A DNA stretch of 64,000 nucleotides. Source: an uncultured Gammaproteobacteria bacterium. Its GTDB lineage: Bacteria; Patescibacteriota; Microgenomatia; Levybacterales; GWA1-39-11. Below are positions 12,711 to 40,300 of this stretch, in pieces. The translations under genes were made by a program, and so were the position numbers. Where the stretch lies: NCBI GenBank assembly GCA_964537315.1, contig CAZIAP010000003.1:463-64462 (forward strand). Direction: 5' to 3'. The notes under the pieces are model-generated. The model had not been told where the DNA came from. It searched no databases and saw only the letters and a list, made by a program, of their open reading frames with translations. How positions within the stretch are numbered: the first letter of the stretch is position 1; each line of letters begins with the position of its first letter.

Positions 12711-12721
12711 CAATGTCCTCG

Positions 12722-14102: not shown

Positions 14103-14122
14103 AGCTTCACTAGTGTGAGATT

Positions 14123-14153: not shown

Positions 14154-14179
14154 ATAAGGTAGCTTACGCTACCAACAGA

Positions 14180-14710: not shown

Positions 14711-14769
14711 TGCTTTGTCCTTTCATGCGCTAAGACAATAAATTCATCAGACTAACGTAGTCTGAATAG

Positions 14770-14969
14770 GACCAAGTGGTCCAAGAGAAAAACAAGATTT
14801 TATCCTTATTTCCCTTTCGGACCTCTCGGTCAAAATAAATACTGTGTTTCTCGTTTGTTAATGTACCTGAGTAATCAGGAGTAGTCTTTATTCTATAACA
14901 AAGCACTCCTGAAAATCTCATCTTTGATCTCAAACATTTGCTTGAAAGCAAAGATGAAACGAGAAACGC
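14770..14969 (-). promoter_or_regulatory. conserved leader/promoter element, copy 2 (upstream of P2)
   Basis: It has the same architecture as copy 1. It shares the 'ggaccaagtggtccaagagaaaaacaag' hairpin and the 3' core 'cctgaaaatctcatctttgatctcaaacatttgcttgaaagcaaagatgaaacgagaaacgc'. The minus strand reads 'TTAACA-N17-TTATTT'. Confidence 0.55.
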
Positions 14970-14981
14970 AGGTTATGTATA

Positions 14982-15029
14982 GAGTGGACCCCGCTAAGCG
15001 GGATCCACTCAGTTTGGTAGCTAAGCTAC
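14982..15029 (-). terminator. two tandem hairpins downstream of P3
   Basis: The hairpins are 'gagtggaccccgc taa gcgggatccactc' and 'ggtagc taa gctacc'. Confidence 0.4.
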
Positions 15030-15032
15030 CGA

Positions 15033-16427: not shown

Positions 16428-16514
16428 TAAAATTTCCTTTCATTGCGCACAATACGGTTTGGACACATCGTCCGTCAAATAGACAAGCTAATATCTACTT
16501 AACGGACGACATAT

Positions 16515-16656
16515 CTTATTTCCGTATATTTCTACGTTTCTCGTTTGTTAAAGTGCTGAGTAATCAGTAACACATCCATGCAATATGAAGTATTCCTGAA
16601 AATCTCATCTTTGATCTCAAACATTTGCTTGAAAGCAAAGATGAAACGAGAAACGC
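16515..16656 (-). promoter_or_regulatory. conserved leader/promoter element, copy 3 (upstream of P3; lacks the first ~60 bp of the unit)
   Basis: 'tttctacgtttctcgtttgttaaagtgctgagtaatcagtaacacatccatgcaatatgaagtattcctgaaaatctcatctttgatctcaaacatttgcttgaaagcaaagatgaaacgagaaacgc' is ~95% identical to copy 1. Confidence 0.55.
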
Positions 16657-16741
16657 ATATCTCTATTCACTGACCGTGCTTCGTATCAAATGTTGTCGGT
16701 TCAAATACCGACGATTTAATACATGACAATCATGAGTAGAG

Positions 16742-16776
16742 TATCCAAGGAGCCCCACAGAGCGGGACTCCTTGGA
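16742..16776 (-). terminator. GC-rich hairpin downstream of P4
   Basis: It has a 10-bp stem 'atccaaggag' / 'ctccttggat' with a 15-nt loop. Confidence 0.4.
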
Positions 16777-16786
16777 TTAGATGACT

Positions 16787-17833
16787 CTAGCGAGCATCAA
16801 TAGTATTGATGTTCTCGCTTCTGTCATACGGTCCCCACCACACAAGACTTTCGTGAGTGGGAGCAGCAGTGGTGTAATCCACTGTAATTGAGACAACTCC
16901 ATCATCCGGTAGGATAATGGTGATGTCACCTGCATCCGAGGTTACCTGAGAATGAGCTCCTGAAGGTCCATTCACTGTAACCACTGAGTTCGGAGCGATC
17001 CGAACATTAATGGCTACAGGACCTGAAGCTCCAGCCAGGAACTGATCCACATACTGTGAGCTGGTAAGAACCCCCAAGCACCACTGAATGTGAGTGCTTG
17101 TGCCTCTGTATACAATCTGACCAGGATTGCCATGATCAGTCCATGCACCGCCTGAGTGATTGCCCAGGGCAAGTGTCACGAACCAACTATCTGCGCCTCC
17201 CCAATCAGGAGCCTTGAACAGATGAGGATTGAACACTCTGTGGAACCACTGTCCGTAAGATGCCAACTCAATCTCTGTTTTCGGCATGTCGTCAAGATTC
17301 CCCGAAGCAGGGAACTGGCAGCTTTGTCCTGTCTGCTGTACCGGTTCAGGCATCGCTGGTTCTTGATCAGGTTCATCGTCGACGATTGCAACATAAGTGC
17401 AAGCGTCTTCAACGTCTCTGTCAAGCTCGTAACCATCTCTGACTTCGCAGTCATCGTGGTTGAACTCATCAGGTTCGTCGTCGACGATTGCAACATAAGT
17501 GCAAGCGTCTTCAACGTCTCTGTCAAGCTCGTAACCATCTCTGACTTCACAGTCATCGTGGTTGAACTCATCAGGTTCAGGCGTGCGTGTAGGATCATCT
17601 CGTACAGGAGAAGGACTAGGCTCTTCGTCATCATTGACGTCAATGCCTATACATTCTTCTTCCTCTACTGAGCGATCAATGTCAATTACTCCGACACAGT
17701 CGGAGAGATCGAATTCAACATCGTCCTCACCGTCTGCATTGACGCTACAGGCTGAAAGCATGAGCATCATAGCGATGAAAACGGCAAGGAAGGGGAACGT
17801 CTTTTGGTTCATCGTAGATCCCTTCTTGCTCAT
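16787..17833 (-). CDS. lipoprotein, paralog P4 (acidic tandem-repeat linker + module C)
   Basis: It has a lipobox 'MLMLSAC'. Acidic Cys-containing 34-aa units 'DEPDEFNHDDCEVRDGYELDRDVEDACTYVAIVD' occur twice. The C-terminal ~155 aa are ~80% identical to the P3 C-terminus. Confidence 0.75.
   Translation of the reverse strand: MSKKGSTMNQKTFPFLAVFIAMMLMLSACSVNADGEDDVEFDLSDCVGVIDIDRSVEEEECIGIDVNDDEEPSPSPVRDDPTRTPEPDEFNHDDCEVRDGYELDRDVEDACTYVAIVDDEPDEFNHDDCEVRDGYELDRDVEDACTYVAIVDDEPDQEPAMPEPVQQTGQSCQFPASGNLDDMPKTEIELASYGQWFHRVFNPHLFKAPDWGGADSWFVTLALGNHSGGAWTDHGNPGQIVYRGTSTHIQWCLGVLTSSQYVDQFLAGASGPVAINVRIAPNSVVTVNGPSGAHSQVTSDAGDITIILPDDGVVSITVDYTTAAPTHESLVWWGPYDRSENINTIDAR
17371..17574. repeat. 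2 x 102-bp near-perfect tandem direct repeat inside P4
   Basis: 'gttcatcgtcgacgattgcaacataagtgcaagcgtcttcaacgtctctgtcaagctcgtaaccatctctgacttc(g/a)cagtcatcgtggttgaactcatcag' occurs twice. The copies differ by 2 nt. Confidence 0.85.
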
Positions 17834-17850
17834 ATGAGCTAGGCTATGAC

Positions 17851-19182
17851 TTATCGGCGTCGACGTTGTCTGTTGATAGTTCGGACCTGAGACTTTTCTT
17901 CCTCAACCTCTTCGTTCTCTGATACCTCAGTATCTCGACTACGCATGAGGATAAGGATTCCCAGAGTCAAAAGTCCGAATACAACGGCTGCTGCTACAGG
18001 AGGGAACCAAAGGTAAGCTTCGCGACCGAAGTCCATCTCGACGTCCGCTATAAACAAATAGAGTCCGATGAGAAAGAAGACTACGGCTGCGATGACTGCT
18101 GCCGCACCTGCAATACTTAGCAAGTTGCTAGCAATCACACTTTTGGTTGCTTGACGCACCTCCCGAATAGCTGTTGAAGCCATTCGTTTGGCTTCTTTCA
18201 ATCCCTCATCTAGCTGTCCTATATGGACTGTATGCTGATTAAGGGTACGTTGTTGGTCTTCTTGAACTCGATCAGTTTCTTGAAATTTCTCTGCCGTTGT
18301 TTGAAGAAGACTGCGTATGTCGCCGATTTCCCGTTCATGCCGAGTAATCGACGTGTCGTGCTTATCCACTTGTTCGAAGCGAGTTTTGAATTCGTTTCTC
18401 ATAGAGCGGATTTCATCTAACACCGGATCTGTTTCTATAGGTGCTGGAGTGATATACACTTGAACGCCGATTCTAGCCACATCCCCTTGACTGTCTTTTA
18501 CTTCCACGACAAATGCATGCCGTCCAGTTTCTAACCCCTTTGTGGAGCCAGAGATATGACCGTTCTGGTAGAGGTGAAGACCAGGCGGAATTTGTTCCGC
18601 ACTCCAATGGTACGGAGGAGTTCCACCTTCCACCTCAAGAGTTCTATTGAGGAACTCTCCTTGACGAATCTCAACGACATTATCCCCAAATACTCTCAAT
18701 GGTTCGGGTTCTTCAGCAATAACGACAGGAGTAGTTTCTTCTGTCATTTCTTCCCCCTCATCTTCTTCAGGACCACCAACAGTATAGGTAGTGGCCTTAA
18801 TTTCCGGTTCTTCCGCCATTTCTTCCTCCTCTTTAACTTCCTCAGGTTCAGGAAGTGGTATGGGTTCAATGGTTTTCCGTACAGGAATCGGTTGATAATC
18901 CGCTACAGCTTCCTTATCTGGCTTGAGGTTGATGAATATGTTTATTCTATTCCTCAAGATGGACTTTGTACCTTTCGTACTAAGTCCCAGCTTTGCTGCA
19001 GCGGTGCGTATCGGTCGATAAGTGAGATCAGGATCATTGATATAATCCTGAAGTTCAGCCCATGTCATAGGTGGTTGAACGCGTATAGTCGTAGGCTTTC
19101 TTGTTGCCTTTCTACTACGAACTATTGCACTAACGATGCCGATTCCAAGTAGGAGTGAAATGATCTTTTTAGCTTTCTCCAA
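17851..19182 (-). CDS. membrane-anchored surface protein (SAP-like motif, acidic linker, Ig-like module, coiled coil, C-terminal TM hairpin)
   Basis: It has an N-terminal TM 'IISLLLGIGIVSAIV' and a SAP-like motif 'AAKLGLSTKGTKSILRNRI'. An acidic linker 'EPEEVKEEEEMAEEPE' is present. There is a He_PIG/cadherin-like Ig motif 'GGTPPYHWSAEQIPPGLHLYQNGHISGST'. Two C-terminal TM helices are present. Domain names are inference. Confidence 0.6.
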   Translation of the reverse strand: MEKAKKIISLLLGIGIVSAIVRSRKATRKPTTIRVQPPMTWAELQDYINDPDLTYRPIRTAAAKLGLSTKGTKSILRNRINIFINLKPDKEAVADYQPIPVRKTIEPIPLPEPEEVKEEEEMAEEPEIKATTYTVGGPEEDEGEEMTEETTPVVIAEEPEPLRVFGDNVVEIRQGEFLNRTLEVEGGTPPYHWSAEQIPPGLHLYQNGHISGSTKGLETGRHAFVVEVKDSQGDVARIGVQVYITPAPIETDPVLDEIRSMRNEFKTRFEQVDKHDTSITRHEREIGDIRSLLQTTAEKFQETDRVQEDQQRTLNQHTVHIGQLDEGLKEAKRMASTAIREVRQATKSVIASNLLSIAGAAAVIAAVVFFLIGLYLFIADVEMDFGREAYLWFPPVAAAVVFGLLTLGILILMRSRDTEVSENEEVEEEKSQVRTINRQRRRR

Positions 19183-19299
19183 CTGATTTTTCCCTTCGTT
19201 TGGTTAAGGTTAATTCCGACTCTTGGCAGAGTGCATCAGAAGATGCGCTTTTCCAAGTACCGGAGTTGGCAGCCTGAGAGAGTTTTCCGACTGCCAAAT

Positions 19300-19345
19300 C
19301 CGGCACCTGATGCCAAGAATATTTTTGCGTTTCTCGTTTGTTAAG
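19300..19345 (-). promoter_or_regulatory. partial copy of the paralog promoter motif upstream of the 17851-19182 gene
   Basis: The plus-strand 'gcgtttctcgtttgttaagg' on the minus strand reads 'TTAACAAACGAGAAACGC-...-TATTCT'. This is the same -35-like box and spacer as copies 1-3. Confidence 0.4.
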
Positions 19346-19558
19346 GAGCAATTGCGTAGCAAGTTGCGACGCATCCGCCTCTGGCGGAAAAGCTCAATTT
19401 ATGTAATGACTCCCCGTTCTCTGCGCAATGCAGGTACGAGCATCAAACATAAAATTCCAAGACTTTATGAGTCTAGGGAGAGTAGCTTTTGTATTTGCGG
19501 TTGGACGTGCGAGTAGGTATTTTAAGCAACTCTCTCTATACTCATGAGTACGTTTAGG

Positions 19559-20251
19559 TTAGCGGGTAGCCTTACGGTTCAGGAAGAGACCAAGCGCTCC
19601 TGCCGGAATGAGTGCTGCAAGTGAAAGAATACCAGCTCCTGTCTGAGGAGTTTGTTTTAGTGGTGGAGTTTGCTGAACAACTGGTCCTCCATCTTTTTGT
19701 GGCTGATTTTTTTCAATACATAGCTGTGTAGAGTCTGTAGCAGAGTGACCGTTCTGAGTAGCACGCACGTTATTAACAACACAAGTTACTGATCTGTCAG
19801 TAGGCAGATTATTACTTTCTGCAGCTTTAACAGTGATTGTTCCTGTATGTGACTGTCCTGGATTAAGTCTTTCAAGAGAGTAGGTAACTTCTTTTCCATT
19901 ATTTCTTCCTCCACTTACCCATGTAAGGTGGTCTGGAAGAGTATCGACTACATTGATATTTTCAATAGTGGTATCTCCGGTATTTTTGATGATAATACGA
20001 AAAGCAATTGTGGCACCCGGAGCAAATTTTTCGTCATTTGCACCAAGGTTATTTACAAATTCTCCGCCTTTAGTAGGTTTTTGAACCTGTTTATCAATAT
20101 TGAAAGAGATTCTCTCATCGCAGATTTCTCCACCGTAGTATCCTCCACCGTAAATAACTTCACATTTAGATCCTCCTGCATTTACCACAGAAGCGGCTCC
20201 TGCGAAGAGTGCAGTTGTTACAAAAAAGAGTGATGTACGTTTAAAATTCAT
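19559..20251 (-). CDS. cell-surface protein with C-terminal LPXTG-like sorting signal
   Basis: It has a signal peptide 'MNFKRTSLFFVTTALFAGAASVVNA' and a DUF11-like beta domain. The C-terminus 'TPQTG' is followed by the hydrophobic 'AGILSLAALIPAGALGLFL' and a basic tail 'NRKATR'. The track ORF starts at 20308. Confidence 0.6.
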   Translation of the reverse strand: MNFKRTSLFFVTTALFAGAASVVNAGGSKCEVIYGGGYYGGEICDERISFNIDKQVQKPTKGGEFVNNLGANDEKFAPGATIAFRIIIKNTGDTTIENINVVDTLPDHLTWVSGGRNNGKEVTYSLERLNPGQSHTGTITVKAAESNNLPTDRSVTCVVNNVRATQNGHSATDSTQLCIEKNQPQKDGGPVVQQTPPLKQTPQTGAGILSLAALIPAGALGLFLNRKATR

Positions 20252-26001: not shown

Positions 26002-26037
26002 AGGGGTTGACCCCCTTTTAGGGGTTTCAACCCCTAA
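26002..26037. repeat. two tandem REP-like GC hairpins adjacent to the Y1 transposase gene
   Basis: The hairpins are 'aggggttgaccccct' and 'ttaggggtttcaacccctaa'. They share an 'agggg...cccct' stem. Confidence 0.6.
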
Positions 26038-26686
26038 ATATGTCTTTCTCAATAATTTGAGGCTTAACTTTAAGAAAAGATTCTTTGTGTGATTGGGTAT
26101 CAGCAACAAAATCCTTATACTGACTTGGAGAAGAGAAAAAGGAAAGTATTAATCTTTTGTTACAAAAGCTATCCTGTGAGCGATCCAGGTACTCACGAAA
26201 GCTTGACCATTGATAGTTTTCTGCCACAATGCCCTGTGTAAACTCAGGGTGGTAATGAATAAAGCGTGAAAGCTCAAGAATCTGATTGTCGTTATCAAGT
26301 GCAGCGGCTCGATATCTACCATGCATGAGTCGTCCGAAACGCTTATACTTTTTATTGTAATACTCTGTGTAGGCATTATTTACTTGTTTCATAAAGCGTG
26401 GGATTGAGTCTTTGTCACTTTGGCGTAGTAAGAGATGAAAATGATCTGGAAGCAAACAATAACCGAATGCATCAATTTCCTCAGACATATTTTTAATTTG
26501 GAGCCTGAATGGTAAGGTCGGATAGGCATTTAAAACTTGCTTGAGCGGTTTAAGGTATATATAAATATAAAATAGAAAAGTCCTATAATCGTCTTCATCC
26601 TGAAACATGTGAGTATCAACACTTTTATTATATATATGGTAAGTTACTCCTTCAGAAAAATTTCTAACGATGTATTTAGAGGGCAT
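26027..26686 (-). mobile_element. IS200/IS605-family Y1 (HuH) transposase, REP-associated (RAYT)-like
   Basis: It has the HuH motif 'DHFHLLL' and a downstream 'YHP...Y' region. Its ~220-aa length is typical of Y1 transposases. It is next to REP-like hairpins. Confidence 0.55.
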
Positions 26687-26761: not shown

Positions 26762-28342
26762 TTAATATACGTCTACACCTTCCATATCAATCCCTTCAAA
26801 GTGTACTTCTTGTAAAAGTGGGGGTGTGGAAGTTGGTGTCTCAGTTGTGTATGTGATCGATATTTTTGCAGCAAGACTTGCATTTAAAGAGTAATCTTGC
26901 CAAGAAACTGTCAGTGAAGGGCCTACTGTACTATCATTCCATACTGCAAATCTCATAGAGTTGCCAGATACCCACCCTGGACGGTCGACGATTTCTTGAA
27001 CAATTGGTGAGATATCAGGGCTTGTTACCCAAGCAGGAGCTCCCCAATTAGGCCAGGTTGCAGGATCCCAATCAACTCCTGCAGTTGTTTGGGTAATCTC
27101 ATGAGGCCTATTTCCTCCTGAACTTGACCATGCAGCAGGGTTATCAGCATCGTCACCCCAAATTTTTAAATGAACATTACTAACAGAGCCAGGATCATCA
27201 ATTCCCTCACCGTATACTTGTATAGTTGATGAAGTTACTGTAGCTCCAGAAGGTATCGTCACATTGGTAAAACGTAAGCCCACATGTTCGCCTAGATTAT
27301 CCCAGGTACCTGCATATAAATATCCGTCGTATCCATTATTAGAGTAGTGGTCAAAGGATTGACCGTAGTAAACATCGTTATTGGTATCATTTACCTGAAG
27401 GTCAATTGTAGGGTCAATCATCACAGGATATTGAGCTTGTTTGAGCCATGTATATGGCGTGGCTACCGAAGCAGTAGTTTTCCCATTCTCATGCTCAAGA
27501 GTGAATTTAAGCTTTGAGTCTGTAGATCCTGATGATGAAATCAACAACTTTTCTCTGCCGCGGTTAGAGTCGCGTGCGACTGCCGGAGGAAAAGCATAAA
27601 GAGGGTCATTATTTTTATCAGCGAATAGTACTCCATTTTTAATGTCTGTTTTACCCTTTGAAAGGATCAACTCAGTGACTCCTTCTTCTGTTGGTAGCAT
27701 AACCATTGTTCCTTCAGCCATGTCAATTGCCAGTTTGAGTTCAAGATATGCATTAGAAATTTTAGGCTCAGGTAACGAATCGTGCGTATTAATTATAAGT
27801 TCTTTAATTACTTGGGTGCTTGTTGTGGTAAAACGCATATCAATTCCGTCTCCATAGATGTTTTTGTAAGTAATTGTATTGTCTTTTGCTACAGCTGAAG
27901 CGGTTTTGTCAGGATGTGCAATGAGCTGTTTTTGTCCTTGATCATTGACAAAGTAGAGTGCTTGTGGAGTCATCTGAAGCGGTTTTTGATCTTTTTCTAC
28001 TCGTACAATTGATTTGTCTCCTACCGTATCTCTAAAATATGCCTGATGATCTGATGCAGACAGTTGGTACTGATATGTTCCGTTCGCTTTGACTATATTT
28101 GTATCATATGATTTCCAGATATTATCTCCATCTTTAAACCATCTTGGTGCAAGAGTCGTTTCAATTGTGTAGGTATCTTTCCCATCTATCTTTCCTTTAT
28201 ACTTTTTTACAGAGTAGGCAGTCTGTTCTACAATTTTTTCAGTTTGAGAAGAGGGTGGCTTATTACCTCTAAAAATGACATAGGCTATTGCGCTAAGTAT
28301 GAGTATGCCAATAATACATACTATGATATGTTTGCGTTGCAT
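26762..28342 (-). CDS. N-terminally anchored exported protein (hypothetical), downstream of giant protein 1
   Basis: It has an N-terminal TM 'IIVCIIGILILSAIAYVIF'. It is 526 aa long and lies 88 nt after the giant gene, on the same strand. Confidence 0.55.
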   Translation of the reverse strand: MQRKHIIVCIIGILILSAIAYVIFRGNKPPSSQTEKIVEQTAYSVKKYKGKIDGKDTYTIETTLAPRWFKDGDNIWKSYDTNIVKANGTYQYQLSASDHQAYFRDTVGDKSIVRVEKDQKPLQMTPQALYFVNDQGQKQLIAHPDKTASAVAKDNTITYKNIYGDGIDMRFTTTSTQVIKELIINTHDSLPEPKISNAYLELKLAIDMAEGTMVMLPTEEGVTELILSKGKTDIKNGVLFADKNNDPLYAFPPAVARDSNRGREKLLISSSGSTDSKLKFTLEHENGKTTASVATPYTWLKQAQYPVMIDPTIDLQVNDTNNDVYYGQSFDHYSNNGYDGYLYAGTWDNLGEHVGLRFTNVTIPSGATVTSSTIQVYGEGIDDPGSVSNVHLKIWGDDADNPAAWSSSGGNRPHEITQTTAGVDWDPATWPNWGAPAWVTSPDISPIVQEIVDRPGWVSGNSMRFAVWNDSTVGPSLTVSWQDYSLNASLAAKISITYTTETPTSTPPLLQEVHFEGIDMEGVDVY

Positions 28343-28430: not shown

Positions 28431-31400
28431 TTAGTTGATAATTAAGAAATTAAATCTTATATCTTCTTCGACTGTCTTCTTTATCTTCACAGTGAATGAC
28501 GCGCTTTGTGATGATGCCTCACTTCGCTGCTCGAATATGAAAGGAGATTCTCCAAAAGTGTCACTAACAGGTGTTACATAAATTAATGAATTTTCAGTAA
28601 CATGAGGGTTCTCAATGGTTCTAATTGTTTCTCCTGCAGTAATAGTTGCTACGCCTGCTGATGCAGATGCTTGAGATAAGGTTGGAGATATATCAATGAT
28701 GTCATCAGTTGTGACATTAAGCGTTTTGGTTGTTAGTACTCCCGCCACCGCCACATTCTTTTCGAACTCCACGTTTTCAGTGAATCTAACAGTACCGTCA
28801 GTGTTGAAAGTAACAGCCCCAGCCATGATTGAGACAGGTTGTTGCTTAAGCGGTTGGATCTCAAGAGTGTCTGAGAGAGTATTGATAGAGTTTGAGTTAA
28901 TGACAAGTTCACCTGCACCGATAGCAAGGGTTTCTGTAATGGCCGCTTCTCGAAGGGTAGTGGTACCCAGAACTGTTAAGTCTGCATTAATGGTTGCAAA
29001 ATCAAAGTCTGCAAAATCAGCCTCAATACCTGCACCTAGGTCAAAGAAAGCACTACTTGAGGCAGTCAGACCAGAGATATTCTCAACGATAAGGTTTTTA
29101 ACTGTCAAGGTTTCTATACTTCCTTCATCAGCAATAATCTCAGGAGTGGTTACCGAACCTGCAAACTTTGCATTACCTGACAAGTCTACCGAGAAGAGAG
29201 CTCCTTGAGTTGATGTTTTATCCATGATTGAGAGCTTAGAATCACCAGTAATTACCTTAAAGTCAGACATGGCAATTTCATCAGTCGTAATTTTACCTGC
29301 AGCAAGCGTATTGTTGATAGTTAGACTATCGCTAGACAAGAATGAAGCATTAATATTTTCAAATAGTCCTGATGTGGCTACCAGGTTTGTAGCAAAGATA
29401 TCTTCACTCTCTATCTTGCCTGATTTGAGGTTGGCGATTGTGGCAGTGGAATAAACTCCAGTTTTATCAATAATATCTCCTGAATCATCTAAAGCCAGCC
29501 AATTTCCGTTATCCTCAACTATTTGTATATTTCCATCTGAGGCTATTTGTACAGCAGGGTCGTACCAAATTCCTTTGACAAAAATCATGACTGTACCAAC
29601 TTGATTAGGATCTGTATTGCTGTAGCTCTCAAGTGCTTGACCTACAATGAATCCTGCACGAGTTGCTTTCATACCTATACCTTCTTTTGAGGAGGAAGTA
29701 ATGTAGTCTCCAGGTTGGATTGCCCCATTTTCAGAAGTAACTTTAACCGGAACACGTCCTGCAAGAGCAATAGGTTGAGGATTATCAACAGAATTAATAT
29801 TATGTCCTATGCTGTTGAAATCTCCAGCTTTTGATTTATCGGACACGACACCTATGATTGATGATTGATATGGTTTTGTCGTCTTGACTAGCTGTTTGAT
29901 ATTGTCGCCATCTTTGGTTGTAACTGTATTAGAACCGATTGTAACCAAATCACCTAACCCTGTACCTGCTGCAACTGGATACATTTCCATGTAATCTGCG
30001 ACTGGGTCTGCATCACAGTCGTATATCAGCGATGCACCGCTATTGTCCCAGCAAAGAGCTGATCCTCCTCCGGAGCTTGCTGGAGTCAAATAGACATTAC
30101 CAGCTCCGCTTGGGCCTAAGACTAGTTCTGCTTCCGTTGGGGTACTGTCACCAATTCCGATATTTCCATTTACACTAACTACAGATAATGGGGTACCCGA
30201 AGAATTACGCCACTCCTGTAGATTTCCTGTTTGGCTAGTAATAGCCTGTACTGATAGAGTCGTGGCAGTTGTTCCACCGCTGAACATGTGGGCGGCTCCT
30301 CCTGATTCGGAATAGTGTATAGTGGTTTCACCAGAGCCGCCTTCTCTATATACTCCCCCCGTAGGTCTAATGGTTCCATTGATACGAAGATGAGTACTAA
30401 TATATGCAATATCCGTAAATGGTGCAAATCCCAGGGTGAAAAATCCACTTGATCCTACTTCTTCAAACGTAATCTTAGGAGAATTTGTGGTGTCTGATGC
30501 AAGGTGTAAAATTGATGCAGGTTGAAAAATGTTACCTCCGATACCATTGATACCCACATATCCAACATTATCTATTATAAATTTTGTTTGACCTGATGCA
30601 CTGGCAGTCAATATATCCTGATCTCCTGTTTCATTAAGTATCGTCAAGGCTTTTCCTACTGTAGAACCTTGAACATTAAATCCACCGAGAGCAGTTGCAA
30701 CTTGGTTTACTCCAATTGCTGTATTTCCGGTATCTACAACGAGAAGTCTATTGACATCTGCCCCGTTGCGGACTGCAAAACCAGTTGTACCATTTGATGC
30801 TCCTAGTTCTGCGACTAGATTCGAGCCAGAATTTAAATAAAGTCCTCCGATTGCAGTACCAATAGTTGCAAAGTTTGATGACCCGTCGTTAAAGTCAAGA
30901 CTACCTGCAAGATATAGGCTATCCCACCTAGAACCAGTTGATCCAAGATTATAGGCATCATTAGTTGTGGGTCCAATATCTCCAGCGACCTGAAGCTTGA
31001 AAGAAGGAGTAGTAGTTCCTATGCCCAAATTACCTGTACCTAAGTTAAACCATGCGTGTTGATTAGTGGTGCCTGGTAATCTAATTAATGCGCTTGAAGT
31101 AGAAGTCGCGCCTAGGGTTACATCCATAAAAGGGTGTACTAAGTGCACAGCTCCATTTGTCATGTCCCAATGATTCGTAGTAGTTCCATCACCGCCACAG
31201 TCTCCCCATTTATATGTGCCATCACCATTTGACTGTAGACATTTATTCAGAGTCCCCACACTAGCAAGCTGAGTAAGTACTCCGGAGCCATCAGTGTAGA
31301 GTAGACCCCCATCGGTAGTAAAGTCAGGAAGAGTAATAGATGAGCCATGGATTGTGACGGCATCTGCACCATCACCTAAATTGAGCACACCATTTGCAGT

Positions 31401-34400
31401 CAACGTACCATTAAAGGTTGAAGTACCACTAGTAGTAAGATTTCCCCCATCTGCAATTACAAATACATCATCTACATCAAACCCACCATTTGCATTTATA
31501 TTTGCAGCAAATGTTGAGATCCCTGCCACAGATAAGGTTGAATCGAGTGATGTCGCGCCAGTTGCATTAACTGTACCGACTACCGATAAGTTATGTGAAG
31601 GGTTGGCAATACCGATTCCTACATTTCCATCGTTTTGTATTACAAACCGTGTAGTCCCTGAAGCGCTGGCTGTAAATATCGCCTGATCTCCAGTTTCATT
31701 AAATATTGCAAGAGCCTTGCCTGTATCTTTTCCGTGTATCATGAGTTTTCCTGTATCTGGGGCAGTGAACCCTAAACGAAGATTACCGGACTCATCGAAG
31801 TGAGTAAGTACTTCATTTGTGCTACTTAAGAAGTCCAATAACCTTCCTGATTGGCCGAATGATCCCTTGATAGCGGTTAAGTTAGTAGCAGTATTATAGC
31901 CTTGAACCAGAAGTGAGTAGTCAGACGCGCCAGTACCGTTTACAAAACTAGGCGGTATTGTTTCACCTCGTGCTCCTAATATCTCGATACCATGGTACGA
32001 GTAGAGCTGCAGCTTACCGCCATTTGATGTCTGCAAAGCGTTTGCCTGATCACCCAACTGAACTCTTGCTGCCTCACCACTTGAGTATTCATTGCCTCCC
32101 ACACTAATAGTTCGAGGGCTTGTAGTGTTAGATCCGTCGATATTTAGATAGAGATTGCCACTATTTTGAACGACAAGTCGCGTAGTGCCCGAAGCACTAG
32201 CAACTAATAGGTTTTGTCCACTTGTTTCATCAAAGATAGCAAGTGCTCTACCGGTGGAGCCTTGTACAACGAGTCCTCCTAAATTTGTTGTCCCTGTAAC
32301 ATTTGCGTTACCCGCAACTGAAAGTTTGTGAAACGGATTTGTTAATCCTATTCCTACATTACCTGTACCTGAAAAAGCGAAGTTGTTGCTGTTAAGTGCA
32401 ATATTTGTTGCCCCTGTAAGTGTCCCTCCAAGGGTGATGGTGTTACTAGTTCTTGTAAGTCCGTTACTGAATGTGAGTGGAGCTTCATACAGAGAAGATA
32501 TATCAGACCAAACAGGGGAGCTTCCATTTGAAGTTAGGACAAAGCCATTACTTCCAATACCCAGAGTGTTCATAACACCAGTTCCACTTCCGTAGAGTAG
32601 AGAGCCTGAGATAAGAGATGTTACTCCTGTACCCCCGTTACCAACTGGTAAAGTACCTGTTACCTCGCTAGTCAAGTCTACAGATGTACCAAGAGTCGTT
32701 GATAACGTATTTCCAGATACTTGTAACCCTGAGCCTGCGAAATCGGAAATTGTGTCTCCACTGATTATCAATGAAGTTAGCGCAAGCGTATTAAATGTTG
32801 GAGATGAGGAAATAGTAAGGGCTTGACCAGTATCAAATTCTAGCTCATTGTCTCCGATTGAGTTTGCAGTGACTGACAAGGTGTGTGCAATACCTTCACC
32901 TGTGGTCGCGCCTGTTGAAGTAATGGTAGAGCTGCCTGTAATCGTTGCTACATAATTTCCTGTGGTGTGTGTTGTAAGCGCGATTAGGTTGTTAAGTGAA
33001 CTTGCGCCTGTTCCACCATTTGCAACAGGGAGTATCCCTGAAATATCTGTAGTTAGATCGATTTGATTTAATGTAATTACTTGGTCTGCAAGAGTGAGAT
33101 AATTATACGACCCTGCAAGAGAGACAGGATCATGAGCTGCACCTGAAATAGAGGAGTCAAGGTCAGCAAGAACGCCTTGGACAGTTGTAGCAGAAGAGTT
33201 TGTAAATTCGTCAAACACGCCTACGAGTGAAGCACCTGAAGTTAAATTATTAGACCCTGTGTCTGCTAAGCCAATTGAACCCACAGTGACTGATCCGAAC
33301 GTAGCGTTTCCTACAGTAGAAAGAGTAGAGCCTAATGTAACTGCCCCTGTTATGTTAGTGGTTCCAGTTACGGATAGTTTATGTAGCGGGTTTGTAGTTC
33401 CTATGCCTACATTTCCGTTATCAAATATGCTGGAATCATTTACTGCGAACTGTCCTGAAAACTTGGCAATAAAGTTAGTGGTTCCGGAACCTCCTAGGCC
33501 AGCACCAGTCCCTGAACAGTTACCTGATGTAAGACAGAATGTTCCACTACTATCTGGTAGAGTATATGTTTGATCACTTGTTAAGGTTGCAACTGTAAGT
33601 TCTCCTTCAAAACCTGAATTGTGCCAGAATAATGATGATCCAGAGCCTCCTGTTGTAAACGCGTTTCCAGATGGCACATCTCCTACAGCGCTGATGTCAC
33701 CAGCACCCGCTATGCCTGAGACTTCTTGCCACGATAACGTGCCTGCACTGTTTGAGGTTAGTACATAACCAGAACTTGCTGCATCCGTACCCGGCCATGT
33801 GTAGGTGACTCCGTTTAACTGTGTAGTACCTATATTTACTAAGTTACCAGATGAGTTTATGCGTACAGTACCGGCACCTGCGCCGGTATTGAGACCAGTA
33901 GTTGCGTTTAGCGTTGTTCCAGTTATGGTGTTAGTGGTTGAGATAATTCCAAAGCCTGATGCTATCGATCCAGAGGACAATGCTCCAGTAGAAGTAAGAG
34001 ATGAATTCGTAACTCCTGAACCAAGAGTTGATGCGCTAAGCACAGCAGTTCCGTTAATTAGATACGAGTTACTAGTAGAAATATTGATACTACCGGCAAC
34101 GTCTAGTTTTGCAGTACTTGGAGTCATCGTGCCAATTCCGAAGTTTCCGCCTGAAGCAAACCAACCGTGTTCATTAGACACACCAGGTAATCTAATAAGT
34201 GCACTACTTGTCGCATTACTTCCTATTAAGAGATCGTCTGATATATTTAGTGGAGCAATGCTACCCGTGTTTCTTTGCCAGTAGTTCAGTCCTGCTCCTG
34301 CTGCGGATTGCCATGTAGGTACTCCAGATGATATAGAAAGAACTGTCCCCTCAGCACCCGCTGAGAGTGCAGAAAGCACGTCGGCAGCTGACGCGTAAAG

Positions 34401-36782
34401 TATTGATCCTTGAGCAATTGTTGTAAGCCCTGTTCCACCTCTGGTAGGTGAGAGAGTTCCGGTAGTACCTGATCCTATCGGTAGACTAGTTGCATCAGTC
34501 AAATTAAAAGCAGGAGTCGTATCAGATTGTCCTAGCTGCAAGGTAATACCACCGTAATTTACGGTACTGCTTACTAAGGCAGATAGAGAAATTGACCCTG
34601 CAGGGAGTGTAATTGTTCCTCCACTTACCGTTAATCCATTTGAAATATATGCATTTCCCGTAACATCCAATGTTGCGTTTGATGCTGTAGTGTTACCAAT
34701 ACCAAGATTTCCGGTGTTAATAAATGAGTTTTGTCCTGCAGTTCCTGTAAACTTTATGAGTGCGCTACTTGTCGCATTACTTCCTATTAAGAGATCGTCT
34801 GATATATTTAAGGGGGCAACCGTACCTGCGTTGCGCTGCCAAAATGTTAAGCCTGCTCCAGATACGCTTGCCCAGGTTGGAACTCCCCCTGAAACAACCA
34901 ATACTTCATTTACAGAACCTATCGGAAGTTTAGTAAGTGTATTTGATCCAGATGCAAAAAGAATATCTCCGGTGGAGTATGTGGACTGACCTGTTCCACC
35001 TCTTGTTTCATCAACAACACTTTCAACAGCCCATGTTCCGCTTGTAATATATGGCACTCCGTTTGATCCTGATGTATTTAGTCCAGTTCCTCCGTAGGCT
35101 GTTCCAATAGCAGTTGCATTCCATGTGCCTGAGGTAATATTTCCTGACGTGTTAATCTGGAAAGCGTTTGCAGTGCCTGAGGTAAATGTTCCCGAGGTAT
35201 CAAGATTACCAGTAATCCCCACGGTTGAACCGTCATCCGTAATCGATGAATCTCCAATCGATGAACTACCTGTAAATTTTGCAAGCGTATTGGTAGTACC
35301 TGAACCTGAAAGAGCTCCTACTCCAGAAACTGATTGCCATGATAGTACTCCAAGTCCATTAGTAGTCAATACGTAGTTATTGCTTCCGTCATCTAGGGGG
35401 AGAGTATAAGTTGTGCTCTGAGCAAGTGCAGCAGGAGACTGAAATGACACATAATGTGAAGAATCACCATCTGCAAATAATAAGCTGCTTTGGTTCTTTA
35501 GTTGTATGGGAGATGTAAACTCCCAAGTTCCAGAAATAACTTCGTTTTGGTTACTTCGGGTAATTAGCGAGTTGGTATAGTCGATTACAATATTTACCTC
35601 GCCGCTTGGTAGTTCACTGAGGTCAAAATCAGTTCCGCTAAAATCAAGTGTATCAGCAGCATTCGTTAAAAGTAGACCTCCTTCTTTAACGTTTACAACA
35701 CCAGCACTCATACCTCCTACATCAGGCGCACATTCCCATACTTGAGATATATTATCCCATTTCAAAACATCGCCATCGTCACATCCTTGCAAGAGAGATA
35801 GTTGATTAGAACCAGTTCCGGCAAACTCTAAACCTGAATTTGAAGACATACTTCCGATGCCGTCAGAAGAACTTAAAAGATCTATTACGAGCGAGTTTGA
35901 TGCAATATTTAACCCATTTCCGGTTAGGCTAGTAAAAGAATTTCCATCTCCACCTATTTGCAAAGAACCTGAAGCAAGGATATTACCTGATACGACTAAT
36001 TTTTCAGTCGGTGTGCTCGTGCCAATCCCTACATTACCTGTGCTGTTTGTGAGATAAACAGAGTTTGCAGACTCTGTCCAGGGTGAAGAAGTTGCAGTTC
36101 CAGTTATGGTGATTGTTTTTGTACTTGTATTAGTCGAGAGGATAATTCCGTTTCCTGCCGCAAAGGTTATAGTATCTCCTGTACTACCTGCAGAAAAAGA
36201 AGATCCTCCTGCTGTAATAGTAGAAAATATGTTTTGATCGTCTGTGTCAGTTATGGTTGAGGAGATGGTTAAGCCGTCAATTTCGATACCGTCTCCTGCA
36301 CTTAGCGTAATTGCTCCAGTCTGTCCTGCGAGTGACAGAACACCTGTATTCGAAAGAGTAGGAGACTGTCCACCCGTTGAAGCTAGTCCAGCTCCAACTG
36401 ATACAGCATTAATAATATTAGGACCTGTTATCCCAGCTTCAAACACTGCGTCACCTCGTACTACCAGAGCGTCACGATAAAGCGTAGGGAGATTAATTGC
36501 TAATGTTCCTTTAACCTCACTACCATCTGGATTTAGTTCAGGTAAATCAGCAAGGTTTTCTGTAGGCACCTCAGGTTGCTGTCGAGAATTAAGACTTAAA
36601 TACGAAAAGCTAATGAAAACTATGATTAGTATAGCGGTCAAGGGAGCGGCGTATGCCAACATATATTTTCGTATATTGCCTGAGGATTTATTATCGTAAA
36701 CCTTTAGAGGGTTAACTTTTGGCGCAGGAATAGGTATTTCATGTGAAAGCTGATCCTTAATTTGTCCTAAGTTCTTATCCAT
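28431..36782 (-). CDS. giant repetitive cell-surface protein 1 (2783 aa)
   Basis: It has an N-terminal TM anchor 'LAYAAPLTAILIIVFISFSYL'. It is rich in G/T/S/N beta-type repeats ('GNVGIGTTNP..KLSV.G..NITG'; 'LPVANGGTGASSLNNLI'). The C-terminal ~215 aa are identical to giant protein 2. Confidence 0.85.
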   Translation of the reverse strand: MDKNLGQIKDQLSHEIPIPAPKVNPLKVYDNKSSGNIRKYMLAYAAPLTAILIIVFISFSYLSLNSRQQPEVPTENLADLPELNPDGSEVKGTLAINLPTLYRDALVVRGDAVFEAGITGPNIINAVSVGAGLASTGGQSPTLSNTGVLSLAGQTGAITLSAGDGIEIDGLTISSTITDTDDQNIFSTITAGGSSFSAGSTGDTITFAAGNGIILSTNTSTKTITITGTATSSPWTESANSVYLTNSTGNVGIGTSTPTEKLVVSGNILASGSLQIGGDGNSFTSLTGNGLNIASNSLVIDLLSSSDGIGSMSSNSGLEFAGTGSNQLSLLQGCDDGDVLKWDNISQVWECAPDVGGMSAGVVNVKEGGLLLTNAADTLDFSGTDFDLSELPSGEVNIVIDYTNSLITRSNQNEVISGTWEFTSPIQLKNQSSLLFADGDSSHYVSFQSPAALAQSTTYTLPLDDGSNNYVLTTNGLGVLSWQSVSGVGALSGSGTTNTLAKFTGSSSIGDSSITDDGSTVGITGNLDTSGTFTSGTANAFQINTSGNITSGTWNATAIGTAYGGTGLNTSGSNGVPYITSGTWAVESVVDETRGGTGQSTYSTGDILFASGSNTLTKLPIGSVNEVLVVSGGVPTWASVSGAGLTFWQRNAGTVAPLNISDDLLIGSNATSSALIKFTGTAGQNSFINTGNLGIGNTTASNATLDVTGNAYISNGLTVSGGTITLPAGSISLSALVSSTVNYGGITLQLGQSDTTPAFNLTDATSLPIGSGTTGTLSPTRGGTGLTTIAQGSILYASAADVLSALSAGAEGTVLSISSGVPTWQSAAGAGLNYWQRNTGSIAPLNISDDLLIGSNATSSALIRLPGVSNEHGWFASGGNFGIGTMTPSTAKLDVAGSINISTSNSYLINGTAVLSASTLGSGVTNSSLTSTGALSSGSIASGFGIISTTNTITGTTLNATTGLNTGAGAGTVRINSSGNLVNIGTTQLNGVTYTWPGTDAASSGYVLTSNSAGTLSWQEVSGIAGAGDISAVGDVPSGNAFTTGGSGSSLFWHNSGFEGELTVATLTSDQTYTLPDSSGTFCLTSGNCSGTGAGLGGSGTTNFIAKFSGQFAVNDSSIFDNGNVGIGTTNPLHKLSVTGTTNITGAVTLGSTLSTVGNATFGSVTVGSIGLADTGSNNLTSGASLVGVFDEFTNSSATTVQGVLADLDSSISGAAHDPVSLAGSYNYLTLADQVITLNQIDLTTDISGILPVANGGTGASSLNNLIALTTHTTGNYVATITGSSTITSTGATTGEGIAHTLSVTANSIGDNELEFDTGQALTISSSPTFNTLALTSLIISGDTISDFAGSGLQVSGNTLSTTLGTSVDLTSEVTGTLPVGNGGTGVTSLISGSLLYGSGTGVMNTLGIGSNGFVLTSNGSSPVWSDISSLYEAPLTFSNGLTRTSNTITLGGTLTGATNIALNSNNFAFSGTGNVGIGLTNPFHKLSVAGNANVTGTTNLGGLVVQGSTGRALAIFDETSGQNLLVASASGTTRLVVQNSGNLYLNIDGSNTTSPRTISVGGNEYSSGEAARVQLGDQANALQTSNGGKLQLYSYHGIEILGARGETIPPSFVNGTGASDYSLLVQGYNTATNLTAIKGSFGQSGRLLDFLSSTNEVLTHFDESGNLRLGFTAPDTGKLMIHGKDTGKALAIFNETGDQAIFTASASGTTRFVIQNDGNVGIGIANPSHNLSVVGTVNATGATSLDSTLSVAGISTFAANINANGGFDVDDVFVIADGGNLTTSGTSTFNGTLTANGVLNLGDGADAVTIHGSSITLPDFTTDGGLLYTDGSGVLTQLASVGTLNKCLQSNGDGTYKWGDCGGDGTTTNHWDMTNGAVHLVHPFMDVTLGATSTSSALIRLPGTTNQHAWFNLGTGNLGIGTTTPSFKLQVAGDIGPTTNDAYNLGSTGSRWDSLYLAGSLDFNDGSSNFATIGTAIGGLYLNSGSNLVAELGASNGTTGFAVRNGADVNRLLVVDTGNTAIGVNQVATALGGFNVQGSTVGKALTILNETGDQDILTASASGQTKFIIDNVGYVGINGIGGNIFQPASILHLASDTTNSPKITFEEVGSSGFFTLGFAPFTDIAYISTHLRINGTIRPTGGVYREGGSGETTIHYSESGGAAHMFSGGTTATTLSVQAITSQTGNLQEWRNSSGTPLSVVSVNGNIGIGDSTPTEAELVLGPSGAGNVYLTPASSGGGSALCWDNSGASLIYDCDADPVADYMEMYPVAAGTGLGDLVTIGSNTVTTKDGDNIKQLVKTTKPYQSSIIGVVSDKSKAGDFNSIGHNINSVDNPQPIALAGRVPVKVTSENGAIQPGDYITSSSKEGIGMKATRAGFIVGQALESYSNTDPNQVGTVMIFVKGIWYDPAVQIASDGNIQIVEDNGNWLALDDSGDIIDKTGVYSTATIANLKSGKIESEDIFATNLVATSGLFENINASFLSSDSLTINNTLAAGKITTDEIAMSDFKVITGDSKLSIMDKTSTQGALFSVDLSGNAKFAGSVTTPEIIADEGSIETLTVKNLIVENISGLTASSSAFFDLGAGIEADFADFDFATINADLTVLGTTTLREAAITETLAIGAGELVINSNSINTLSDTLEIQPLKQQPVSIMAGAVTFNTDGTVRFTENVEFEKNVAVAGVLTTKTLNVTTDDIIDISPTLSQASASAGVATITAGETIRTIENPHVTENSLIYVTPVSDTFGESPFIFEQRSEASSQSASFTVKIKKTVEEDIRFNFLIIN
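28775..29428. repeat. ~655-bp near-identical segment shared with 37757-38411
   Basis: About 570 bp are identical ('gtgaatctaacagtaccgtcagtgttgaaagtaacagccccagccat...cttgcctgatttga'). A few mismatches occur near the 5' edge. Confidence 0.85.
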
Positions 36783-37374: not shown

Positions 37375-40300
37375 TTAGTTGACTATTAGGAAGTTAAATC
37401 TAATATCTTGGTTTACAACATTTTCTATTTCAACTGTAAAGTGCTGTCCTGCTACTTGATTCTTGAGATATACTTGCTGGCCACCTGTTGATCCTACAGG
37501 TGTAATAAAGATTAATGAGTCTTCGGTTACATTATCGTTATTTACCCGTACCTGTGTTTGATAAGCTTTGAGTGTGACAAGTCCTGCTGATCCTGAGGCA
37601 TTCACAGTCGTATTATTAACTACTTCTGGTGCTGTGGCTTCAACTCCAATTCTTTCAAAGTTAGCTGACCCTGATACGTTCAGTACATCATTTACACCTT
37701 TGATTACACTGGTTACGAGTTCTCCTTCAACAGAGACATTTTTTTCAAAGGCGACATTTTCAGTGAATCTAACAGTACCGTCAGTGTTGAAAGTAACAGC
37801 CCCAGCCATAATTGAGACAGGTTGTTGCTTGAGAGGTTGAATCTCAAGCGTATCTGACAGAGTATTGATAGAGTTTGAGTTAATGACAAGTTCACCTGCA
37901 CCGATAGCAAGGGTTTCTGTAATGGCCGCTTCTCGAAGGGTAGTGGTACCCAGAACTGTTAAGTCTGCATTAATGGTTGCAAAATCAAAGTCTGCAAAAT
38001 CAGCCTCAATACCTGCACCTAGGTCAAAGAAAGCACTACTTGAGGCAGTCAGACCAGAGATATTCTCAACGATAAGGTTTTTAACTGTCAAGGTTTCTAT
38101 ACTTCCTTCATCAGCAATAATCTCAGGAGTGGTTACCGAACCTGCAAACTTTGCATTACCTGACAAGTCTACCGAGAAGAGAGCTCCTTGAGTTGATGTT
38201 TTATCCATGATTGAGAGCTTAGAATCACCAGTAATTACCTTAAAGTCAGACATGGCAATTTCATCAGTCGTAATTTTACCTGCAGCAAGCGTATTGTTGA
38301 TAGTTAGACTATCGCTAGACAAGAATGAAGCATTAATATTTTCAAATAGTCCTGATGTGGCTACCAGGTTTGTAGCAAAGATATCTTCACTCTCTATCTT
38401 GCCTGATTTGATATTTGCAGCAAATAGATCAGCATATGCTTTGCTGTCTTGCGCTATATCTCCGTTGTCGTTTATGACTAGCCAGTCATTTCCATTCTGA
38501 GCAATCTGAAGTTCGCCATTTGCGGCAAACTGAATATTAGGATCATGCCAACCAGGGTTCAAATAAACTTTAATTGTTCCGCAAACAGCATCAGTAGATT
38601 CACTTGCTGGACAGACGTGAGTATTTCCAATGCCGGTTGATGGATTAAAGTCAGATAATGCACGACCTACTATTTCACCTGCATTTATTGCTTTGGCCCC
38701 ATATCCTCGTATTTGTGATGCAGTAATTGGATCCCCAGCTTTAATTGGTCCATTTATATTACTTACTTTTACCGGTAATTGTCCGGTAAGACCAACTAGT
38801 ACGTTGGTTAGTTCATAATTCGAGTCACAATTGAGGTCCTCTGAATCGCAGACAGGTCCATTTCCAACGAACCCAGGAGTATCAGATACAATACCTACAA
38901 TTGCGTTTGAACCATTTGCGCTTCTAACTGTATTGCTTTTGGTTGAGTCAACCATGACAATTTCACCAACTGTTGGTTTTGGTTCAAGTTGGTTAAATAG
39001 GAAGTACTCTGCATAATCTCCACCTGAAGTCGAGTAAACAACCGCGTTAGTTGCTCCTTGAATTTTTCCGGTTATGGTTGTTCCACCTGAGCTTCCTCCG
39101 AATGAGATTAAGTAATTATTAGCTCCCCATCCAGCAGTGCCTCTTCCATTAGAAACGAGTATTCCTCTACTAGTGGTGCCTGTGTTTGTATTATGAAATT
39201 GCGCAACATATTGAGTGGTTGTAGAAAATGATGCCTCAACGTGCAGCTGTCTTCCTGTCGGTAGAATAGAAGCTCCTATTGCGACAGGTTCAAGAAGGAA
39301 AATGCTGCTTGAATTTACTGTCATTCTCGTCGCTCCTGCTGCAGAAAAGACCATGCCGTTTCCGGAAGATCGAGAAATTCCGGTGTTTGATCCAGATGAA
39401 AAGCTGAGACCTGGTAGAGAAGATGTTCCATCTGCAGCGAATATTCGCCTATTTGAATCAATTACTGTGGTTCCTCCAGATTGGAGGCTGCCTGATACAA
39501 TGTTGAATGAATCGCCTGACGCAAGCGCCAGTGTATTTACGCCTGATCTGTAAAGTTCAACATCGGTGCCAAATCCTATACCGCCTGCGGCAGTTGTGTG
39601 ACTAGCAAGCTCAAGTATATGCCCAGGTGCTGTTGTGCCGATTCCAAGGTTGCCAACTCCGGTAAGTCTCATATTCTCTACAGCACCACCGGACTCAAAA
39701 ATAAGATCGTTTGCTGAGTTACTGCCAAATCCTGCACGAGTTCCTTTACTATCAGGTTCAAAAAATCCTATCATAAAATCACGATTTATACGCATATCGC
39801 CTTCGACGTGTAGTTTATACTGCGGAACATTGGTTCCAATTCCGATATTCCCTCCACTATTAATAAAGAGTGAATTCGTTGAGGCTCCTTCTTCAATACT
39901 GAATGGACCAGTAGCGTTGCTGATATCCCAAAAGCCGATAGTTCCGTTTGTATTGGTAAAGAGCGACCATTGATTTGTGCTACTTCCGTCTTCTAACCAT
40001 AGCTCAGTATTTCCTGATCCAGATTTCAGGTGTAGTTTTCCTCCAGGGGAAGTTGTGCCAATACCAACGTTACCTGATGTGGGGTTGAGAATAAGGTTAG
40101 CAGCTGCGTTGATGGTTAAGTCACCTGATGAGTTACCAATTGTTGAGTTTGTTCCACCAACCGAAAGTCTAGCAGTAGGGTTGGTTGTGCCGATACCAAG
40201 ATTACCGCTTGTTGTGAGAGATAGTAATGGGTTAAGAGATCCAGCATGTCCATTGAGGCCGATAAAGAAGTTATCGTTTGCTGTGTTGATTCCCAGTGCA

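Follow-up and report, generated by a model that had tools for sequence, protein, structure and literature searches.

The 64,000-nucleotide window considered here, the whole stretch of contig CAZIAP010000003.1 that was analysed, carries two giant genes on its minus strand and an ATPase gene cluster on its plus strand from position 58639 onwards. Giant 1 (28431-36782, minus strand) encodes 2783 amino acids (aa) and giant 2 (37375-58239, minus strand) encodes 6954 aa, whilst the gene that opens the ATPase cluster encodes a small fusion protein of 266 aa (58639-59439, plus strand). All three proteins contain a common module, which is a diverged intramolecular chaperone domain of the phi29 gp12 tailspike type (Pfam PF11962 Peptidase_G2, MEROPS G2); the family itself is known, and the membership of these proteins is new. 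Our overall reading, to which we assign a probability of about 0.7, is that the giants use this gp12-type module to cleave themselves, and that a copy without the catalytic dyad is carried by a c-subunit-like membrane partner of a divergent F1-type ATPase.

The module occupies aa 2262-2409 of giant 1 (29556-29999, minus strand), as supported by BLASTP, hhalign, AlphaFold2 (AF2) and Foldseek; aa 6407-6567 of giant 2 (38539-39021, minus strand), as recognised by Pfam PF11962, PHROG 4775 and alignment with phi29; and approximately aa 38-170 of the small protein (58750-59148, plus strand), on the grounds of homology and a β-domain in the AF2 model. That the three proteins share a module, as the original prediction proposed, is borne out by both BLASTP and profile-profile comparison. 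In BLASTP the small protein aligns with giant 1 over 94 aa (37% identity, E=6e-16) and with giant 2 over 42 aa (52% identity, E=1e-8). A profile built from 10 giant-type modules aligns in hhalign with one made from 35 of the small protein's homologues over 127 columns, with a probability of 99.85% (E=7e-31), so that the profile comparison by which the prediction had asked to be judged is significant. Chance or compositional similarity of the three modules can be rejected on the strength of the composition-adjusted E-values (6e-16, 1e-8 and 7e-31).

The shared motif is present in each protein where it had been placed: SSIIGVVSD at 29838-29864 and GIWYDP at 29556-29573 in giant 1, NAIVGIVSD at 38881-38907 and PGWHDP at 38539-38556 in giant 2, and PQMVGVVSE at 58861-58887 and GSALEDF at 59062-59082 in the small protein. 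Two parts of the earlier description needed revision. The module is not ~90 aa long but ~130-160 aa, starting ~60 aa further upstream at a D-x-x-E-x-Y motif; and the giants are not otherwise different proteins, their C-terminal ~560 aa aligning at 56% identity.

As for the nature of the module, the suggestion of an intramolecular-chaperone-type domain of fibre proteins has held up in Pfam, in profile matches to the PDB, in the alignment of the cleavage site and in fold searches, whereas no folds of the OB/SH3-like kind, the other suggestion, turned up in any search. Giant 2 matches Peptidase_G2 ('IMC autoproteolytic cleavage domain', IMC standing for intramolecular chaperone) at 33.1-37 bits against a gathering score of 25, and PHROG 4775 ('pre-neck appendage protein') at E=1.6e-5; one unnamed PHROG matches all three modules, at that PHROG's C-terminal end. 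In the PDB, gp12 and the tailspike Dpo31 were reached only by a module-only profile of giant-type sequences, which matched 28nb_A (Dpo31 tailspike 'chaperon domain D4') at E=1.7e-4 and the phi29 gp12 entries 3gqh_A (E=4e-3), 6qz9 and 3suc. Single-sequence phmmer searches of the PDB with the giant 2 C-terminus and with the small protein yielded nothing useful, and neither did a full-length profile of the small-protein family. The C-terminus of phi29 gp12, translated from phi29, reads ..WS/DFAEYF..GYLVTL..IIGVISETAGFVLG..VVGLLGQIAVRID.. (here and below a slash marks the cut) and is collinear with giant 2, where its counterpart is ..GG DYAEYF..GEIVMV..IVGIVSDTPGFVGNG..LVGLTGQLPVKVS...

The predicted structures lead in the same direction. 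The AF2 model of the giant 1 module, with a predicted local distance difference test score (pLDDT) of 84, matches 3gqh_A in Foldseek with a probability of 1.00 (E=1.7e-3) and also matches 3suc; the small protein was modelled with a pLDDT of 85 overall, its module forming a β-domain at 85-97. Within BFVD, a library of viral models, the giant 1 module best matches the C-terminal ends of phage proteins of the tail, tail-fibre and preneck appendage types (E down to 1e-10), models named 'preneck appendage protein' scoring E~3e-8 with template modelling (TM) scores of 0.54-0.57, and DUF2190 decoration proteins rank lower (E~1e-4). The PDB fold matches of both β-domains include trimeric capsid decoration or cement proteins, namely those of Borrelia phage BB1, Sf11 and Pam3 together with TW1 gp56 and the base of phi29 gp8.5, which match the small protein's domain at E~3e-4.

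Several observations weigh against the family assignment. Giant 1 has no PF11962 match, and although Peptidase_G2 is the only Pfam family found in the small protein, at 12.7-14.7 bits (E 0.02-0.09) it stays below the gathering score. It is mainly the first half of the domain that is spanned by sequence matches to Pfam and the PDB, and the TM-scores of the giant 1 model to 3gqh are modest (0.36-0.40). Lastly, the domain is not the extreme C-terminus of a spike, as the giants carry ~375-400 aa beyond it.

The phi29 gp12 chain is reportedly cut between Ser691 and Asp692, with Glu695 assisting. The giants' GG/DYAEYF (39001-39021, minus strand) and VA/DYMEMY (29979-29999, minus strand) align with the WS/DFAEYF of phi29, and the Asp...Glu dyad is present in both, which makes these their predicted autocleavage motifs. 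An exhaustive HMMER search with the giant-type module found 26,555 cluster representatives at E<=1e-3 (21,380 at E<=1e-10). The best 150 of the 26,555 are almost all large proteins (485-5476 aa), and they include 143 large proteins with the core motif; records that carry a name are listed as 'hypothetical protein' and belong to lineages of the Patescibacteria, for instance Woesebacteria and Magasanikbacteria. In 132 of these 143 (92%), D-x-A-E-x-[YF] is kept, ~63 residues upstream of the core motif. The small-protein family has A-N-Y-x-P-I at the position of the dyad (ANYLPI in the window's own protein), and DxxExY occurs in 0 of 63 homologues. With this split, 132/143 versus 0/63, the dyad is kept where cleavage would free a fibre tip and lost where cleavage would sever the domain from its membrane anchor.

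With the phi29 cleavage motif kept, the giants are predicted to trimerise from the module and to cleave themselves at x/DYxE. In phi29 itself, the release of the chaperone domain needs ATP, which is unavailable outside the cell. Should the prediction be right, it would extend in checkable form to thousands of unannotated giant surface proteins from the Candidate Phyla Radiation (CPR), which would be trimeric fibres self-cleaving at x/D-x-A-E.

Both giants have an N-terminal membrane helix and, apart from the region of that helix, they lie outside the cell. The module sits ~520-550 aa from their C-terminus and is followed by a β-helix-like stretch and then by a conserved terminal domain ending in ..FNFLI(I/V)N; giant 1 ends in ..RFNFLIIN, and the same C-terminal ending is seen in neighbours at other loci. 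This post-module region, ~375 aa in giant 1 (28431-29555, minus strand) and homologous to 37375-38538 of giant 2, matched no Pfam family. In the 143 large homologues, a median of 329 residues separates the core motif from the C-terminus. We infer that the giants are trimeric surface fibres whose folding is nucleated by the module.

Over the C-terminal ~560-600 aa, the 56% identity between the giants includes a 232-aa block of complete identity, encoded at a 553-nucleotide run of identical DNA (28876-29428 = 37859-38411), whilst the module regions just upstream of this run have diverged to ~40% amino acid identity. Such an identical run beside diverged modules suggests recent gene conversion or recombination between the two genes.

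Other features of the giants and their surroundings deserve mention in their own right. Giant 2 (37375-58239, minus strand) contains many long internal repeats, in which units with ..DLTTDVTGILPVANGGTGANTLNDLIQLATHTTGNYVATITG.. recur many times. Its N-terminus (57440-58239, minus strand) holds two MerR-type helix-turn-helix (HTH) domains (PF00376, 76.7 bits over two stretches), followed by ~120 low-complexity residues and then by the single membrane helix; as the HTH domains precede that helix, this giant extracellular fibre would have a cytoplasmic DNA-binding head. Downstream of the 3' end of giant 1 lies a gene for an IS200-like Y1 transposase (26027-26686, minus strand; PF01797, 28.6 bits), separated from it by a 526-aa open reading frame (ORF) of unknown function (26762-28342).

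The small protein starts at the ATG at 58639; reading the ORF from the TTG at 58570 instead would lengthen it by no more than a hydrophobic leader. Four parts can be told apart: an N-terminal signal peptide or signal anchor (58639-58737, with a hydrophobic core and A-I-S/Q), the dyad-less module, a short helical linker, and a two-helix hairpin resembling a c subunit (aa 191-266, 59209-59436). The signal segment, modelled by AF2 as a helix at residues 3-27, ends in an A-x-A-like ..AQ in family members, and the peptide is putatively cleaved. The protein is predicted to be exported by this peptide, its module being extracytoplasmic.

Relatives of the small protein number 510 at E<=1e-3 in a word-indexed search and occur in 233 GTDB species genomes, the named carriers being Levy-, Roizman-, Davies- and Amesbacteria, WWE3 and Microgenomates; the organism labels on many further records are generic or unrelated. 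Six of 35 homologues have sub-threshold to moderate matches to Pfam 5_nucleotid_C (best E=2.1e-5), and PF02872 is also precomputed for two homologues, P0071 and P0106; we judged these matches to be probably local β-strand similarity.

The c-subunit-like nature of the membrane part goes beyond what the original prediction had noticed. The hairpin consists of two AF2 helices (residues 193-228 and 232-265) joined by a loop, A-L-G-R-N-P, whose GRNP (59323-59334) is invariant in 35 of 35 members and is the most conserved part of the family. In c subunits, the corresponding R-Q/N-P loop makes the contact with gamma and epsilon. Foldseek returned dozens of matches to the c subunits of F-ATP synthases, with target TM-scores of 0.7-0.82 and a root-mean-square deviation of ~2 Å, and several homologues carry the label COG0636 at JGI. 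The predicted topology, with the domain outside, the loop inside and the C-terminus outside, would be that of a c subunit with an N-terminal extension. At the level of sequence, ATP-synt_C (PF00137) matches 8 of 35 family members at E<1 (best 9e-4). An hhalign comparison of the hairpin with six canonical c sequences gave E=0.0025 and a probability of 12%, aligning GRNP with ARQP and placing V250 in the column of the carboxylate. Indeed, no acidic residue occurs in helix 2 of any of 63 homologues, and the ion-binding carboxylate is thus missing.

Other results speak against kinship with subunit c, the link being weak at the sequence level. ATP-synt_C is the sole Pfam match of the isolated hairpin, at 15.6 bits against a gathering score of 24, and helix 1 is without the GxGxGxG packing motif. 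Sequence searches of the PDB with the small protein and with its full-length family profile matched no c subunit, and a hairpin-only profile run against a set of 5.8 billion proteins recovered only fragments of the same family, with no canonical c and no other fusion architectures.

In the window, the fusion gene is followed on the plus strand by genes for a b-like stalk protein of 296 aa (59452-60342), with one N-terminal membrane helix and then a long coiled coil, and for the F1 subunits delta (60375-60866, Pfam OSCP), alpha (60897-62471, Pfam ATP-synt_ab) and gamma (62475-63359, Pfam ATP-synt). The window stops before the beta gene is complete, and beta and epsilon were read from the related loci L001 and L003. 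Our survey of the operon covered 84 fetched loci plus the window. The order fusion, b-like, delta, alpha, gamma, beta is found in ~70 of the 84 loci, with the fusion gene first and epsilon present where annotated. The b-like protein has a weak NCBIfam match to F0F1 subunit B (E=0.011) and a conserved place in the operon; the F1 genes are divergent from their NCBIfam equivalogs, and beta keeps Walker A (GGAGVGKT), GERxRE and Walker B.

Neither a canonical c subunit nor an a subunit was found in the 84 loci and the window: a hidden Markov model (HMM) built from six c sequences detected no canonical c subunit, and a search by R-L-x-G-N motif plus helix count detected no a subunit. No conserved multi-helix neighbour lies within 5 kb of 59 complete operons either. 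Two points temper this picture. As the scan took in the fetched loci, a canonical atpB/atpE pair may lie elsewhere in the genomes, and in five loci (L028, L053, L062, L063 and L081) the several kb around the fusion gene hold no ATPase genes. The assembly of L081 also contains L014, a locus with the operon, and the stand-alone copy in L028 (WWE3) is longer, at 340 aa. Conversely, two complete and mutually divergent operons occur in each of three metagenome-assembled genomes (L005/L044 in CAYVAJ01, L043/L046 in JBPOIT01 and L029/L067 in CAYQEE01), reflecting either paralogy in tiny genomes or mixed bins. Stand-alone fusion genes and duplicated operons leave room for other roles, or else reflect mixed bins.

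That the operon is odd had already been noticed by Kantor et al. 2013 (PMC3812714). In genomes which they describe as complete or essentially so, they found no recognisable homology for the a, b and c genes adjoining the WWE3 ATPase operon, and they likened the putative c subunit to a transmembrane protein of the ATPase operons of OP11 and WWE3. ProAD (PMC11738941) lists 20 F/N-ATPases whose c subunits have no Glu/Asp and ascribes missing Patescibacteria ATPase genes to incomplete genomes. Our literature search found no description of the fusion's domain content, of the missing carboxylate or of a link to the giants. An operon without an a subunit, in which an extra domain is fused to a carboxylate-less c-like hairpin, is a new form of F-type ATPase.

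The shared partner or assembly function suggested by the original prediction is conceivable, but the small protein's copy has lost the catalytic dyad, and two tests gave the idea no support. When 169 modules were ranked by closeness to that of the small protein, giant 1 of the same genome came 21st and giant 2 last, so that the small module is no closer to the giants of its own genome than to those of others, contrary to what co-evolution or recent exchange would predict. A module-bearing large protein stands near the operon in ~6 of 84 loci, which we do not take as evidence because the rough chance expectation for genomes with several such genes is similar. In three loci, L031 and L044 (related to one another) and L003, a gap of 2-47 bp separates the end of the giant from the fusion gene that follows it on the same strand, and these large proteins may be co-transcribed with the ATPase operon. 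They lie at 5077-9966 in L031, 5152-9936 in L044 and 2-3658 in L003, measure 1218-1629 aa, and have an N-terminal membrane anchor and the D-x-A-E motif.

Other readings of the module and of the giants have to be weighed against ours. The module could be merely an oligomerisation or adhesion domain akin to the DUF2190-type decoration proteins, in which case D-x-x-E would be structural and the giants would not cleave themselves. It is true that BB1, Sf11, Pam3, phi29 gp8.5 and TW1 are its best PDB fold matches, ahead of 3gqh, that the minor capsid family PF23982 (XM1_gp53) finds sub-threshold matches in 17 of 35 fusion proteins, and that the domain is not C-terminal in the giants. Yet D-x-A-E-x-[YF] is kept at a fixed distance in 92% of large homologues, and the one family to have lost it is precisely that in which cleavage would cut the domain loose from its membrane anchor. 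Sequence profiles, moreover, match gp12-type chaperone domains and not decoration proteins, and in BFVD the C-termini of tail and pre-neck appendage proteins (E 1e-10 to 1e-8) surpass DUF2190 (E~1e-4); on balance we regard this alternative as distinctly improbable. Less credible still, to the point of being nearly negligible, is the notion that the giants are tail-fibre genes of a phage or prophage and that the module marks a mobile viral region. The best-known members of the domain family do come from phage tailspikes, and an IS200-like transposase gene lies near giant 1, but both giants are anchored in the membrane at their N-terminus, giant 2 with two MerR HTH domains on the cytoplasmic side, and a scan of window proteins showed none for phage structure or replication. 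A tblastn search of 50,697 phage genome records with the giant 2 module found zero matches, whilst the large homologues run to thousands, the named ones coming from Patescibacteria genomes.

A further alternative concerns the small protein alone, which might stand outside the rotor as an accessory or assembly factor, its operon position recalling that of AtpI, or as a co-transcribed envelope protein, with a and c encoded elsewhere and the ATPase translocating ions in the ordinary way. This would sit well with the sub-threshold similarity to c subunits, with a helix 1 devoid of GxGxGxG, with the stand-alone fusion genes of L028, L053, L062, L063 and L081, and with a and c searches whose reach was the fetched loci. 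It sits poorly with the fact that F1 genes normally lie beside Fo genes in CPR operons. It is also hard to reconcile with a loop which, in c subunits, is the contact with gamma and epsilon and which is here the best conserved part of the family, with ~84 loci in none of which an a or canonical c gene was found, and with the WWE3 genome of Kantor et al. 2013 (PMC3812714), where a, b and c have no recognisable homologue. We therefore think it unlikely, if the most serious of the competitors, and return to the reading of a gp12-type module borne by self-cleaving giants and, without its dyad, by a c-like ATPase partner.

How might such a system work? In the giants, we posit that the module would nucleate trimerisation of the fibre and would then cut the chain at x/D-Y-x-E, as in phi29 gp12, separating a C-terminal fragment made up of the chaperone domain, the β-helix and the terminal domain. 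In the small protein, the dyad-less domain would be exported behind the signal peptide, with the R-N-P loop of the hairpin facing the cytoplasm. The odds, in our view, lean towards a divergent F1-type ATPase with an outer crown and without canonical a/c ion transport, whose partner in the membrane, as ring or rotor foot, is the fusion protein. The conserved GRNP loops would bind gamma and epsilon, the ATPase would be unable to carry protons or sodium in the canonical manner, and the non-cleaving chaperone-like domains would together make up an oligomeric crown outside the membrane, where some interaction with the giants is conceivable.

One could go further and imagine a rotary F1-type ATPase of Microgenomates that works without ion transport, its c-like ring displaying tailspike-chaperone-like domains on the cell surface and converting ATP hydrolysis in the cytoplasm into mechanical work outside the cell. 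We offer this as a long shot; if true, the machine may help to assemble the giant trimeric surface fibres with the same domain, to release them or to move them. In the wider setting, nearly all CPR bacteria possess an F-type ATPase and no respiratory chain, an open puzzle according to a 2024 review (PMC11665869). If the a subunit and the carboxylate are indeed missing and the extra domain, borrowed from chaperones of fibre assembly, is extracellular, then the enzyme of one large CPR lineage is probably no conventional machine for protons or sodium. What the ATPase does would become directly testable through three sequence features, namely the GRNP loop, the domain without its dyad and the absent carboxylate.

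Elsewhere in the window, positions 1-1222 (plus strand) fall within an rRNA operon, with the 3' end of the 23S rRNA at 1-911, cut at the window's edge, and the 5S rRNA at 1110-1222. The G+C content of 12000-20000 is 0.45-0.48, compared with ~0.38 in the flanks, and the minus-strand ORFs of this segment are mostly without a Pfam family, although an immunoglobulin-like He_PIG domain occurs in one of them and DUF11 in another; the segment may represent foreign DNA or an island of surface proteins.

Set beside known systems, the giants most resemble phi29 gp12 (PF11962; 3GQH, 3SUC) and domain D4 of Dpo31 (28NB). The domains are collinear in sequence, share the cleavage-site motif x/D-[FY]-A-E-Y-F, the ..IxGVxS..PGF.. 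segment and the ..VGLxGQxxVxV.. strand, match in fold, and lie near the distal end of long fibrous proteins. The differences from phi29 gp12 are nonetheless considerable: the domain ends the phi29 protein, whereas the giants continue for ~375-400 residues; phi29 gp12 is a virion spike, whereas the giants, at 2783 and 6954 aa, are proteins of the cell and anchored in its membrane; NGxIxxGDxITSSxxPGxGMKA, strongly conserved in the C-terminal half of the module, is absent from phi29; and the copy in the small protein lacks the catalytic dyad and is joined to a membrane hairpin. Among PDB folds, trimeric phage capsid decoration proteins of the DUF2190 type are the top matches of both domains (E~1e-4, TM 0.45-0.55), but here there is no capsid context, and sequence profiles point to gp12-type chaperones.

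On the membrane side, the small protein resembles F-type subunit c (PF00137, COG0636) in its two-helix hairpin, in an R-N-P loop comparable to mitochondrial ARNP and bacterial ARQP, in a predicted N-out, loop-in, C-out topology, in TM-scores of 0.7-0.82, and in a gene that belongs to an F-type operon and directly precedes the b-like gene. It differs from subunit c in having neither a Glu/Asp in helix 2 nor GxGxGxG in helix 1, in remaining below the Pfam threshold, in its ~190-aa N-terminal extension (signal peptide and extracytoplasmic domain), and in being unaccompanied by an a subunit in the fetched loci. A parallel in concept is offered by the F1-like X0 ATPases of Mycoplasma (types 2 and 3), which reportedly pair F1 alpha-, beta- and gamma-like genes with non-Fo membrane partners, in a complex for which a role in driving a surface function, and not in ion transport, is reported to have been proposed. 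Unlike the Mycoplasma complexes, the CPR operon still has delta and epsilon together with a b-like stalk and a c-like hairpin, and so stands much closer to a true F-type enzyme.

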